Source: Eledone cirrhosa (taxonomy: Eukaryota). From it: a stretch of DNA of 64,000 nucleotides. The position numbers and the translations under genes were made by a program. Positions within the stretch are counted from its first letter, which is position 1. Each line of letters opens with the position of its first letter. The stretch spans positions 321,408,001 through 321,472,000 of the forward strand of contig OZ024742.1 of NCBI GenBank assembly GCA_964016885.1, read 5' to 3'. Positions 165-63,049 of the stretch are shown piece after piece. Under the pieces are notes generated by a model. That model did not search any database, had not been told where the DNA came from, and saw only the letters and a program-made list of their open reading frames with translations.

Positions 165-376
165 AGATGTTAGAAAAACCACAGACCCTCCATCTCAACT
201 CTACTTTTGAAAAGAACTGCGAAACCGGCGGTAAAGGAACGAAATAAATATATATATATTTTTTAAATAAGACTCCAGTTGCATTATTGATTTCATCTTT
301 TTTTCTTTATACTTTCACTCGTGTAGGACACCTCGGTTATTTTTCATTCTGTAAAAAAAAAACCTCACTTTCTAAT
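165..376 (+). mobile_element. (TA)n-flanked short repeat module, family A (putative Penelope-like pLTR end with UUGAAAA-variant hammerhead remnant)
   Basis: Homologous copies at 24395-24662, 42228-42390 (reverse), a more distant one at about 51000-51180 (reverse), and a start at 63987-64000. TTGAAAA at 207-213 and GAAA-CCGGCGG-TA at 221-233. Confidence 0.65.
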
Positions 377-1199
377 GTATATATATATATATATATATAT
401 ATATATATATATATATATATATATATATATATATATATACATATATATATATAAATATATACATATATATATATATATATAAATATATATATATATATAT
501 ATATATATATATATATATATATATATATATATATATATATATATATGCCCTTCTAGATGTAGTCTTTGAAATTTTATCTTCATGAATCAAACTGTCTATA
601 AAACACACACATAGAAATACGCATACCTACCTACATACATATATACACACATACCTATACACATACATACATTCATACATACATACACACATACATACAT
701 GCATACATACATACATATATATATACATACATTCATATTTGCATACATACATACATACATATTTGCATACATTCATACATACTTACATACATACATACAT
801 ACATATATACATATATACATTTACACATACATACATACATACCTGTGTATATAGGTATAGACAAGCAGTGCAATGAAGCGTGTGTGCATAAATCGACGTT
901 GCATGAACATGCTTAAAGCAAAGCATCTGATGTGTTGTGATGTGTGGAGATATGCTTGATCTGGTACAAAATAGCCCGGCATATTTGCGCATACTACAAA
1001 CACACGCATATACACACAGACACGGGAAAAAACATACTTCTACATACGCAGAAGCACATAGTAATACACACATATGATTACATACACATACGTAGTCATG
1101 CACGAACAGAAACGTACACTCAGCGGCGTACAGACATACACTTTCACCTGAAGATACATATAGATAGATAGACAGATTGACACACAGAGAGATAGATAG

Positions 1200-3010
1200 A
1201 TTTCTTTATTAGCCACAATGGCGCAACAAGAAAGGGGACAATACAAAGACATGCCGGGGATTTTACATACAGTCGTGTAAAAAATATAAAAACAAACAAT
1301 TTCAACAATCGAAATCCCCAATAGGGAGAAGGCGCCACAAATGGGTTGTTTAATACCCCGTCGATAGAACAACCCTCAACTCGAGGAGCGTGTTGTGCAA
1401 GTGCTCCTTTCTTCCTTTTGCTCTCTTCCTCAACCTACAGGCTTATAAACAGAGAAGGCCCAATCACTCGGGCCATTTTCGCTTCATTCACCCACCTTTC
1501 AGTAAATTTACTGGGGTGTAGTGCCTCTCTCTCCACCCTGATTCTCCTTCTAAAGTGATACTTAAAGAAGGGAATCAATTGTTGTCCGGAGAGAAAGGCA
1601 TCTGTCCTCAGTCCTCTCAACCTCGTCCACCATATAACTTCTTTCACCATAGCCACCGTACAGAGGAAAACCGCCTCTCTTTCGTTTTTGAAAGAGTCTG
1701 GCGGTTTGATCCTTACTATGGACTTGGCAGTCAACTGTATTTGTCCCATACGCGACAGCAGTTGTTCTGCATAGTTCCACAGGTCGCTAACGCCCGGGCA
1801 GTGTACAATTGCGTGCAGAACTGTTTCAATGTCCTGCGCACATCTTGGACACGTCCTCTTGGAAGGATCCCTGCCAGGGCGTCCGTGCCTGTAGATCTTG
1901 TCACGAACCGGTAGAGCTCCTCGGTAGCACTGCCAGGCCAGGGACCTCTGGAAGTTGTCCATAGGTCCCGGGCGGAAAGTCCTACCAAACAGACTGGTGA
2001 GCTCATCGTCTTCGACGTCCAGAGTCTCTCCGAGCACGTCGTCGCTCTTGTAACGTACAATCCCTCTATAGAATGTCGAAGTGGAGTCTCCACTGATTGC
2101 TGCGCCCGCTTTCCAGAGGACTGTGAGCGCCTGAGCGCATTCAGTGTGCCAGGCGCCCATCGTTTTCGGTCTTTTCTTCACCCAGGACTGCAGCTCCGTT
2201 AGCAAGACGAGCTGTGGGAAAGCCTATCTCACAAACGGTGCCCACACCGGTTGGGGGTCGGTGAGGAATACCTGGAGATGCCGCAGCCTCAGCGCATGTT
2301 TGCGCATCATCAGCCACGGCATTCCCAGCCCTCCGTTGGAAGGGTGCTAACAGCAGACGGATCTCCTCACCAGCGGAGCCTGCTTCTTCCACAGAAACTG
2401 GAAGAGCATGCGTTCCATCTTGGCGAGGTGTTCACGGGGACAAGGCACGACAGTCAAGCGGTAGTAGATGACGGACGCTATGAAAGTGTTCGCCACCTCC
2501 GCTCGACCTTTCAAGGACAGTTTGCACTCTGCCCACTTCTGAGTGAGTGCAAACACCTTGGCCGTGACCTCGTTCCAGTTTTTCTCCACCTGGAGGTCTG
2601 GACCGAACCTGACCCCGAGCAATTTCACCGGTCCGTCCGTCCAGCGTCCAACGACGCTGTCGGATGTCATCGGTTTGCCTCTCCACGTACCGAGTTGCAA
2701 ACCGACAGACTTGTCTGGGTTTAGTTTTGCTCCCGTCAGCGTTTCGTATTCTTTCAGTATGTTGCCGATCACCCCGAATTCCGAGGTGCTCGACACCATT
2801 ACTGTCACGTCGTCGGCATAAGCCGACGCCGCTTTGCGCAGTCCCGGTTCTAGGGGGATGCCCTGCAACAGCTCCAATTTCCGCAGTAGTGGCTCTAGAG
2901 TCAATACATACAGAATGGAGGAGAGAGGGCATCCTTGTCGAATGGAACGCGTGATTGCGAACGGCTCCGATAGGTAGCCGTTCACCTTGACCCTCGAGCA
3001 GATGCTAACG
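1200..3010 (-). mobile_element. 5'-truncated Tx1-type non-LTR retrotransposon, copy A (RT 3' half plus C-terminal zinc-binding domain, frameshifted)
   Basis: ORF 2347-3078 has SIRQGCPLS and AYADDVTV. ORF 1435-2205 has CPRC...ETVLHAIVHC. The 3' end AATAAAGAAA runs into (TCTA)n. Confidence 0.93.
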
Positions 3011-60499: not shown

Positions 60500-60578
60500 T
60501 TCTGCTCTGGTATCGCATTTTCGCGCCAGATTTGAAGAAGCGAACATACGTACGTATCAGGCGGAAGAAGCGGAAACG
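60500..60578 (+). CDS. Candidate second exon
   Basis: Acceptor TTGTTTTACAG at 60499. Frames from both ATGs stay open. The donor is uncertain (GTACGT at 60550 or GTGAAC at 60579). Confidence 0.35.
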
Positions 60579-63049
60579 GTGAACACCAGGAAACAAGAGA
60601 AATACACACACATACACACACATACACACACATACACACACATACACACACACACACACACACACACACACACATACATTTATATATATATATATATATA
60701 TATACATATATATATACATATATATATATATATATATATATATATATATATATATATATATATATATATATATATATATATATACATATATACAAATATA
60801 CTTATATATATATATATATATATATATATGTGTGTGCATATATATATATATATATGTGTATATATATAGTATATGTATATGTGTAAATATATGATGTATA
60901 CGTATAAGTTTATATAATTGTTTCCTGAGAGTCAAGCCGTCATCATTTTCTACCTGTGATTTTGTGCTCTAAACGTGCCTACCGTAACACAAGACGAATC
61001 TGGATGCGGGTGTGTATATATATATGTGTGTGTGTGTGTGTGTATATATATGTGTGTGTATATGTATATATATGTATATATATATATATATATATATATG
61101 TATATGTATATGTGTATATATATATATATATATATATATATATATATATATATATATATATATATATATATATATGTATATATATATGTAATTATATATT
61201 ATATATATATATATATATATATATATATATATATATATGTATATATATATGTAATTATATATTATATATATATTATATATATATATATATATATATGTAA
61301 CTATATATGTAATTATATATTATATATATATTATATATATATATATATATATATATATATATATATATATGTATATATATATGTAATTATATATTATATA
61401 TATATATATATATATATATATATATAATATATATATATATATATATTATAATATATATATATATTATATTATATTATATTATATACTTTCTATCTTTCTC
61501 TATATATATGCATAATGGTTTCATTTATTATTTTACAACGTTGATTTTTTTTTTTCGTCTCTTTTTATTGTTTTTTTTTTTTGTATAATTTTTGTATTTG
61601 TTTATCATGATGAGATAAATATTGCGGTTTTTCATGAATATTTCTGAGTTTATAACCATTTTGATAATTGAGAGGCGGTGGAAGCGTTTCTGAATTGGCG
61701 GGGGGGGGGGGGAACAAATTTCATCAATTTAGCGATTATCAAATATCAAGCAATATATAGAAAAAAAAATTTCGATATGCGATAAACATAACATGTACTA
61801 ATAAATGCATATTTTGCTAGTTTGAGGAGAAAAATATAATTAGGGGGGGGCGGGGGGGGGGGGGGGCTTTGGACCCCACCTCTCCAAGTTCCACCGTCCC
61901 TGTAATTCTGACGTTACCTTGTTTTATAATTGTTTTCTTTTTGTTTTCTGTGTTTTTTACGTCTTGGTTATTTACAGATTTACTATATTTACAATACCTG
62001 TTTCGGGTGTTAAGCTGGTGATTTGAGGGTAGTACACATCTTTAATCTTGTACTGAGTTACAGGTGGCTGGATTACGGCCATGCTACAGCTTTGTGTTGT
62101 TTGTTTACTTGTTTGTTTGATTTTAGGAGAATTATTTTGTTTTTTAGTATCGATAAAGCATATTGTTTTCCAGTTTACAATTTTTCGGTATGTGATGAGT
62201 TCATATGATGTCGGATGTATATATTTGTATAGTGTACATAATAGATATATGTATATATATATATTATACAGGCGTGTGTGTATGCATGTATGTATGTATA
62301 TGCATGTGTATTTATATGTTTATACATATATATCTATATATATATGTATGTGTGTATCCATCTCCCTCTCTCTCTCTATATATATATATGTGTGTGGATC
62401 TATCTATCTATCTCTATATATTCATTCCTATACACAGATATAATTTTTTTATAGTTTCAATCTACACATATGAAGAGTCCATTCATAATTCAATGTTCTT
62501 ATTTATGTATTTAATATCATTTTAACTGTATACATGACCACACACACACACACACACATATATATATATACTCACACACGCGCATACACACACACACACA
62601 CACACACACACACACACACACACACACACACACACACACACACACATATATATATATATATATATATATATATATATATATATATATATATATATACATA
62701 TATATATATATATATATATAGGAAAATGTTTAACCCCGACGACAGACCTTAAGCCGTTTCGACGACTATTTCTGGACCAGCTCTGCCGTCGGGGTTAAAC
62801 ATTTTCCTATTACCCACTCTACTACCCTAAGTATTGAGTACTCTGGTGCGTTTTGGTCCATCTGGTTCCTTAGCAAACTTTCTTCGTTATATATATATAT
62901 ATATATATATATATATATATACATATGGAGATATATATATATATATATGTATGTGTGTGTGTGTGCATGTATGTGTATATATATAAATTCCGAAAGAGGG
63001 GGGGGGGGGGGCACATATGACTAAGACAATGGAAAAAGAATGGAAAAAA

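Follow-up and report, generated by a model that had tools for sequence, protein, structure and literature searches.

Hammerhead-bearing ends of Penelope-like elements and retrozymes in the (TA)n tracts of a 64-kb stretch of the Eledone cirrhosa genome, and a bulged hairpin past their insertion point

The stretch analysed here, referred to as the window, comprises 64,000 nucleotides of the Eledone cirrhosa genome (assembly GCA_964016885.1, contig OZ024742.1, positions 321,408,001 to 321,472,000). Between its (TA)n microsatellites lie short islands holding type I hammerhead ribozyme motifs, which a first-pass annotation, made from the sequence alone, had described as a ribozyme layer of unique-looking islands docked at (TA)n. 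We find that the motifs are real, and that each island searched represents the 3' terminus of a dispersed repeat that has lost its 5' part. The siting at (TA)n stands, but the ribozymes are passengers in element ends rather than free-standing units, and the islands are far from unique: nine families from the listed sites were searched, and each has about 1,000 to 3,400 first-look candidates in the genome.

A strict type I descriptor (a CUGANGA or UUGANAA core with stems I to III) matches the window nine times (23144+, 25424+, 33132+, 34153+, 50190+, 33746-, 32997-, 32783- and 32156-), against 0.23 +/- 0.49 matches, two at most, in 200 block dinucleotide shuffles and none in the reversed window. 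These nine have the C3-A9 and G12-A14 core, helices I to III and an NUH site; the other cores are damaged or variant, and bring the total to about 20. All 16 sites proposed earlier hold a type I core or a recognisable damaged copy. Several of those called clear pass the strict descriptor, but 31457 (2-bp stem I), 52520 (damaged) and 29076 (stem II region of about 100 nt) fail it. The strict matches are patchy, all lying between 23.1 and 50.2 kb. In a genome sample of 40 unselected 10-kb stretches at round-number coordinates (399.8 kb in total), 33 matches were found, against 3.1 +/- 1.6 in 30 shuffles, that is about 75 strict matches per Mb and, by rough extrapolation, roughly 2 x 10^5 in the genome. 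The earlier figure of one fold per 4 kb is thus appropriate to this window with damaged copies counted, but the sample gives about one real strict hammerhead per 13 kb.

Could such folds be accidents of AT-rich DNA lying beside plentiful microsatellites? The genome (3.0 Gb) is microsatellite-rich, with 1.7 to 1.8 (TA)6 tracts per kb. Moreover, Rfam, which had been suggested as a check, finds nothing in the window at its gathering score, and when run by E-value its best 150 of 352 rows are dominated by microsatellite-like miRNA models. Against this stand the excess over shuffled sequence, in the window and in the sample alike, the fixed position of the motif within high-copy families, and the side on which the microsatellite is found. 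A (TA)6 tract lies within 300 nt downstream of 19 of the 20 hand-listed window cores (26% of background positions; p 1.5e-10) and of 25 of the 33 sample matches, but upstream of only 11 (background 21%). The stems also covary in the group of family C (34145/52520/43446), where 97.3% of cells are paired and 10 of 16 pairs show two-sided change; none of 500 shuffles scored as high, and slid controls gave 37 to 58%. This test covers the one group, family C and its relatives, and its rows are mostly descriptor matches and hence biased toward pairing. Altogether, we leave chance practically no weight.

The islands have the hallmarks of Penelope-like elements (PLEs): pseudo-long terminal repeats (pLTRs), 5' truncation, inverted arms and tails. 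Copies of the 25424 family stop sharply at one shared 3' point bordering (TA)n or (CA)n, with ragged 5' ends. More generally, 3' ends are fixed 40 to 260 nt past the predicted cut site, 5' ends vary, and mirror arms and second ends (the tails) occur; seven insertions are packed into 31390-34249. No PLE open reading frame (ORF) was found in the window by tblastn of Neptune- and Poseidon-type proteins, and a short Hydra ORF tail at 30001 (family J) was then recognised via genomic copies. The genome yields 10,596 first-look GIY-YIG candidates and holds full ORFs in which reverse transcriptase (RT) is followed by a C-terminal GIY-YIG endonuclease; the 938-aa ORF of the F1 element at locus L041, for example, has RVT_1 and GIY-YIG domains. 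Walking upstream from the window islands into longer genomic copies joined 11 families to PLE ORFs, several of them seen only in part. The mixed PLE and retrozyme community inserting in (TA)n that had been proposed is thereby borne out, two further families being non-coding and tandem, and we regard the PLE and retrozyme identity of the islands as nearly certain.

Among the groups that target (TA)n here, Hydra ranks first and the Neptune type second. Hydra ORFs are linked to families B (23144), C (34153, 43499, 52433, 52528), J (29202), Lf (31716, 62720), H (42513) and F (33132, 32997); site 50190 is related to C by similarity, its own ORF not being seen. Hydra DKT replaces DKG in B (L265), C (L264), H and F, the sequence of J and Lf stopping short of that region, and the CxC-x5-C linker with C-terminal CxxC and CxH occurs in B, C, J and Lf (L278), the endonuclease of H and F not being read in sense. 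In the in-genome endonuclease tree, a single starred branch (100/99) unites the five Hydra-type endonucleases, namely those of B, C, J and Lf and an unlinked one, and tree and motifs agree with the family grouping. Neptune-type ORFs are linked to F1 (164, 24389, 42220), P (50988), A (25424, 43046) and D (31459). F1 has the CX2-5CxxC linker, DKG and GxKF, and P and A have the linker; the seen part of D is the last 80 residues of the endonuclease, and excludes the linker. Family G (33746) is called Nematis-like on endonuclease layout alone: it resembles Nematis rows by eye and forms a long branch in the tree. No ORF link was found for K (24022), M and Q; no genome-wide ORF search covered K, M, N, Q or O.

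The lead toward Naiad elements given by the first-pass annotation did not hold. Naiads prefer (TA)n, and Octopus Naiads appear in the supplement of PMC8557442 as far as it could be consulted; families K, M, N and Q are also still without an ORF. For the linked families, however, the Naiad reading is refuted, because the endonuclease is C-terminal in every linked ORF where it is seen and the DKA motif occurs in none of 13 ORF pieces; Naiads, in the accessible part of PMC8557442, are moreover without canonical hammerheads. That the ends in general belong to Naiads is very improbable.

Table 1. Element ends and related features of the window (strand "." for fold-backs and mirror pairs)
Feature	Positions	Strand	Remarks
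Neptune-type F1 3' end (pLTR)	164..376	+	U3-A8 core 207, damaged stem II, ACCGGU helix III; matches both flanking repeats of the L041 element
Family Q end	20815..21020	-	Hammerhead remnant (ACCGGU); bulged hairpin 20918; ORF not found
Hydra family B end	23006..23244	+	Core 23144, hammerhead intact; begins with 41 nt of the family's own tail in inverted orientation; ORF with DKT and CxC-x5-C in L265/L266
Family M end	23283..23496	-	Fold-back, hammerhead 3' half; related copy 13859-14069; ORF not found
Family K end	23700..24261	-	Core 24022 CAGAAGA (U4A); bulged hairpin 23771; ORF not found
Neptune-type F1 mirror pair	24389..24662	.	Core 24575
Neptune-type A end	25314..25548	+	Intact minimal hammerhead, core 25424, ACGU helix III; endonuclease upstream in L150/L141/L136/L134, CX4CxxC linker
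Hydra family J	28886..30001	-	Final ORF codons, 3' untranslated region (UTR), hammerhead (core 29202, ~100-nt stem II region, ACGAUCGU helix III), tail
Neptune-type D end	31390..31576	+	Core 31459, 2-bp stem I; partial copy 20545-20636; in L393 and L394 an endonuclease C-terminus lies ~1.3 kb upstream
Hydra family Lf fold-back end	31716..31916	.	Broken within stem II; second copy 62720-62887, bulged hairpin 62816; Hydra-type endonuclease upstream in 8/25 loci
Retrozyme E	31983..32813	-	One full 627-nt unit and partial second; ends in (TA)n; hammerhead cores at 32783 and 32156 (cuts predicted close to 32715 and 32088); terminal fragment at 31637-31679 (+)
Retrozyme E bulged hairpin	32422..32446	-	~10 nt past fixed insertion end (~32456)
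Hydra family F mirror pair	32885..33378	.	Cores 33132+ and 32997-; tail on + arm; Hydra ORF follows tail in L383
Nematis-like G end	33558..33837	-	Core 33746
Hydra family C end	34064..34249	+	Intact hammerhead, core 34153
Neptune-type F1 end	42220..42394	-	Truncated within hammerhead
Hydra family H	42465..42872	.	Core 42513 (-); inverted partial arm with tail, bulged hairpin 42811 (+); Hydra ORF follows tail in L297, L298
Neptune-type A, degenerate second copy	42951..43186	-	Core 43046
Hydra family C end with tail	43311..43781	-	Core 43499, damaged
C-related subfamily with tail	49983..50370	+	Core 50190
Neptune-type P 3' UTR and end	50988..51927	-	Core 51133, U3-A8, GCA replacing GAA; absent from first-pass annotation
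Non-coding family I end	52020..52221	+	Core 52131, this copy with GAC for GAA; elsewhere a tandem unit of 2,077 nt
Hydra family C mirror pair	52334..52719	.	Cores 52433- and 52528+; bulged hairpin 52635

Two families, E and I, have the organisation of non-LTR (non-long-terminal-repeat) retrozymes: dispersed, non-coding head-to-tail units with one hammerhead each. The unit of E is 628 nt long, has no ORF over 84 aa and forms arrays of one to eight units, the full-length matches listed being 98 to 100% identical. Its 3' end is fixed: in 35 loci, 34 of 36 arms stop in (TA)n at unit positions 363-368. The starts on the 5' side are scattered, most of them likewise bordering on (TA)n. The core is perfect in all 101 unit copies scanned (overlapping loci included), and the ribozyme folds into a full three-way junction (z -2.56) with a monomer-stable helix III; by minimum-energy folding of 13 window cores, E alone forms all three helices as a monomer. 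Contigs of four sequencing runs of unrecorded type, none recorded as RNA among those listed, cover the E unit including head-to-tail joints, and are uninformative on expression or cut sites. Family I is a 2,077-nt tandem repeat in L326 and L327, with no PLE protein match in 25 loci. A third tandem, retrozyme-like family (L225, L262, L240) has a 592-nt unit with a U3-A8 core, and its end in (TA)n is fixed.

Just past the insertion end, read-through copies of five Hydra families (B, C, J, H, Lf), of both retrozymes and of K contain a bulged hairpin, built of RCUC and an upper stem of 3 to 5 pairs with a loop no longer than about 60 nt, followed by a 2-nt bulge and GAGY. It lies about 8 to 16 nt beyond the modal end, and its upper stem varies in sequence from family to family while pairing is kept in each. 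We found it in 10/49 copies of B, 10/26 of C, 8/44 of J, 21/67 of H, 41/111 of Lf, 20/39 of E, 15/34 of I and 2/8 of K; most of the remaining copies in these eight families end before its position. In the 400-kb genome sample it occurs 54 times, against 5 to 21 times in ten shuffles. The hairpin had been noted before the ORFs of Lf, H and I were searched for; Hydra ORFs were predicted for Lf and H because of it, and both predictions held, while I proved non-coding. Family K is also predicted to be Hydra. In I and F the second end is followed by a hairpin of its own (in F, after the tail in L383). By eye, the same fold is seen in the published coral and sea-cucumber consensus sequences Hydra-2_Amil, Hydra-1_Ajap and Hydra-2_Ajap (available PMC8557442 supplement), with a variant in Hydra-1_Crog and nothing evident in the parts of Hydra-1_Obim that are displayed. 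The hairpin was not matched in D, M, N, Q and O as queried. TA-like microhomology at the junction itself amounts to 3 to 7 nt for E, B, P, G, F, J and F1, but for C and H to 1 nt; as the sequence is AT-rich, these matches may be incidental.

How might such ends be produced? By analogy with the Poseidon element studied in vitro (PMC11167929, consulted in part), the GIY-YIG endonuclease would nick (TA)n, and RT would start inside the RNA and copy back through the hammerhead. The enzyme would bind near the pLTR-ORF junction and start slightly 3' of the hammerhead, so that most insertions, being abortive, would keep the ribozyme end alone. Priming from both strands would give mirror pairs, and since insertion within (TA)n leaves target on either side, ends would pile up. 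In Hydra the bulged hairpin, given its position, covariation and clade restriction, would be the protein-binding start signal; it likely sets the start of reverse transcription and thereby names the helper of the retrozymes. Because the hairpin is common to both and to Hydra, E and I are likely copied by Hydra enzymes. The hammerhead of E, which folds as a monomer, would cut the 628-nt unit; once ligated into a circle, the unit would be copied round by the Hydra enzyme, giving arrays of one to eight units with one fixed end. Motifs with a palindromic helix III would cut as dimers only, single truncated copies being mostly inert. Taken as a whole (truncated PLE and retrozyme ends in (TA)n, a hairpin that positions the Hydra RT, and retrozymes copied by Hydra) we consider this mechanism probable. 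A stronger form is put forward tentatively, as plausible though short of probable. In it, Hydra RTs would recognise a portable bulged hairpin, shared between corals and this genome, by which the copy start is fixed a few bases upstream, and any self-cutting circular RNA of 0.6 to 2 kb carrying it would be written into (TA)n as rolling-circle arrays.

Two alternatives were considered. The tandem units could derive from linear multimeric transcripts or from DNA recombination, the hammerheads being passengers and neither cleavage nor circles playing a part. In vitro, Poseidon did not need hammerhead cleavage to insert (PMC11167929, accessible text), and two abundant families have cores altered family-wide, P with GCA for GAA (30 copies) and Lf with C3 opposite A8 (41 copies), changes expected to weaken cleavage. 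Arrays of up to eight near-identical units sharing one 3' end at many unlinked loci fit this poorly, as do the perfect core of E and its monomer-stable helix III, and circles have been demonstrated for other animal retrozymes (PMC7229834, consulted in part); we therefore judge it unlikely, although it deserves to be kept in mind. Alternatively, the hairpin may merely be inherited, the retrozymes being deletion derivatives of Hydra ends and the hairpin serving in some other role (promoter, translation or ribozyme folding); the PLE and retrozyme assignments would be unaffected. The hairpin does also stand where the ORF-bearing part of the RNA begins (L297, L383), and one retrozyme family is without it. 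Yet its spacing of about 8 to 16 nt is kept in eight families that otherwise differ in sequence, second hairpins stand behind the second ends of I and F, and E matches no Hydra end among the examined loci, which makes simple inheritance more doubtful still than linear transcripts.

Several observations weigh against cleavage, circles and a Hydra helper guided by the hairpin. Linear multimeric transcripts could also yield tandem arrays; P and Lf have spread with altered cores, which argues against a universal role of cleavage, and hammerhead mutants left Poseidon insertion in vitro unaffected. No specific autonomous partner of E was seen among the examined loci; apart from end fragments, these contain just one relative, 70% identical (L106). 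The clade names rest on motifs and on the in-genome endonuclease tree, which is without outside references, published Hydra having been compared by eye. As to the hairpin, its descriptor was written after the Hydra families had been seen. It is found in 0/182 copies of seven Neptune-type, Poseidon and Nematis-like families, but many of these copies end before its position, and family A has no read-through copy. It was also not matched at the first end of F (0/2, a variant register), in subfamily 50190 (0/7) or, in strict form, in the 592-nt retrozyme family (0/5 copies). The mechanism outlined above remains our preferred one, and the core changes of P and Lf provide natural tests of whether PLEs need cleavage. 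A different core architecture was noted at L044:2770-2850 (-), where a Neptune-type hammerhead has four bases, UUGC, replacing stem II, conserved in 10 copies; it resembles engineered minizymes.

Other features were noticed in the window. Several nested non-LTR retrotransposon copies at 1200-11450 (-), and also at about 54300-55100, hold endonuclease and RT ORFs with an upstream zinc-knuckle ORF, partly frameshifted; by their motifs they are Tx1/L1-like. At 12643-13188 lies an element like a miniature inverted-repeat transposable element, with long inverted arms about 67% identical and a 45-nt direct repeat at its ends, and at 21664-22564 a minisatellite (29 bp x 31 copies, 91% matches). A dispersed repeat of about 200 nt, similar to short interspersed elements, recurs at 18857-19072, 27289-27489, 34336-34489, 37523-38269, 39862-40290, 40646-40857 and 52884-53116, and a second family at 24688-25312 and 47058-49179. 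Further islands between (TA)n tracts are 13250-13399, with a lone CUGAUGA at 13291, and 13507-13826, a fold-back of family N whose hammerhead is seen at other loci. A mirror pair of a 157-nt sequence at 63463-63928, with microsatellites between the arms and no visible hammerhead, is possibly another PLE end.

The hammerhead layer is a dense example of a published phenomenon. Minimal hammerheads in PLE ends, in thousands of truncated copies, with a palindromic helix III and a U3-A8 variant, have been described (PMC4209133). The extra base after A9, opposite-strand pairs 100 to 700 nt apart and the dimer model are shared with our families; here the count is higher and family-wide cores are further changed (A13C; C3 opposite A8). 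The layer bears mainly on repeat annotation, since the (TA)n tracts of this genome are filled with ends that lack RT, from at least 11 PLE families, and Rfam does not report them. For Hydra, (TA)n insertion, hammerheads and one Octopus family, Hydra-1_Obim, were already listed by Craig et al. 2021 (PMC8557442, on which what follows draws in part), and the elements described here agree in DKT, CxC-x5-C linker, C-terminal CxxC and CxH, a hammerhead near the 3' end and (TA)n insertion. In contrast to the few Hydra reported there outside cnidarians, six families occur in 64 kb, with 1,400 to 3,400 first-look candidates for each one searched, and tails measure about 70 to 140 nt instead of 30 to 40 nt. 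The Neptune-type families, and apparently the Nematis-like one, likewise follow the description in PMC8557442 (RT, CX2-5CxxC linker, C-terminal GIY-YIG, microsatellite bias), except for the U3-A8 cores with an ACCGGU helix III found in several of the Neptune-type families.

The signal for internal initiation on PLE RNA has so far been a stem-loop region in one Poseidon element. In Poseidon of Anolis (Frangieh et al. 2024, PMC11167929, in the sections available), the endonuclease cuts AT-rich DNA and two internal RT start sites correspond to the element end and the tail. Start sites downstream of the hammerhead, a stem-loop at the start and an AT-rich target are common to both systems. The elements here belong to another clade; their hairpin, conserved from family to family, is placed immediately 3' of the start, and several families have a 3-7 nt TA-like junction, whereas no target homology was seen for Poseidon. 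A Poseidon-type family is also present in this genome: at L251 and L252 (G000:C2:200.83 Mb; C4:233.39 Mb) it is very young, with intact 900-aa ORFs in tandem and inverted arrays and many copies with identical scores, and it is probably still active, judging from these sequences. No description of a clade-specific hairpin that large retrozymes have in common with their helper clade turned up in the literature searched, whose scope excluded subscription papers, Repbase notes and preprint supplements, and the main text of PMC8557442, to the extent available, gives no match for hairpin or stem-loop.

As for the retrozymes, a PLE origin has been proposed (PMC7229834; bioRxiv 10.64898/2026.07.22.740005; both consulted in part). 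Families E and I resemble metazoan non-LTR retrozymes in their non-coding head-to-tail units, single type I hammerhead and dispersal, with PLE-driven mobility proposed for both. Their units of 628 and 2,077 nt are larger than the published ones of about 150 to 400 nt, they have a PLE-style fixed insertion end in (TA)n, and they carry a conserved motif pointing to one PLE clade. This bears on the statement, in the accessible text of a 2020 review (PMC7761336), that animal retrozymes are without a conserved motif revealing the mobilising retrotransposon, and it makes the questions of helper and start signal testable in vitro. If true, a portable hairpin would identify the helper of animal retrozymes, and would offer a small handle for programmable, telomerase-like insertion of RNA-templated DNA.

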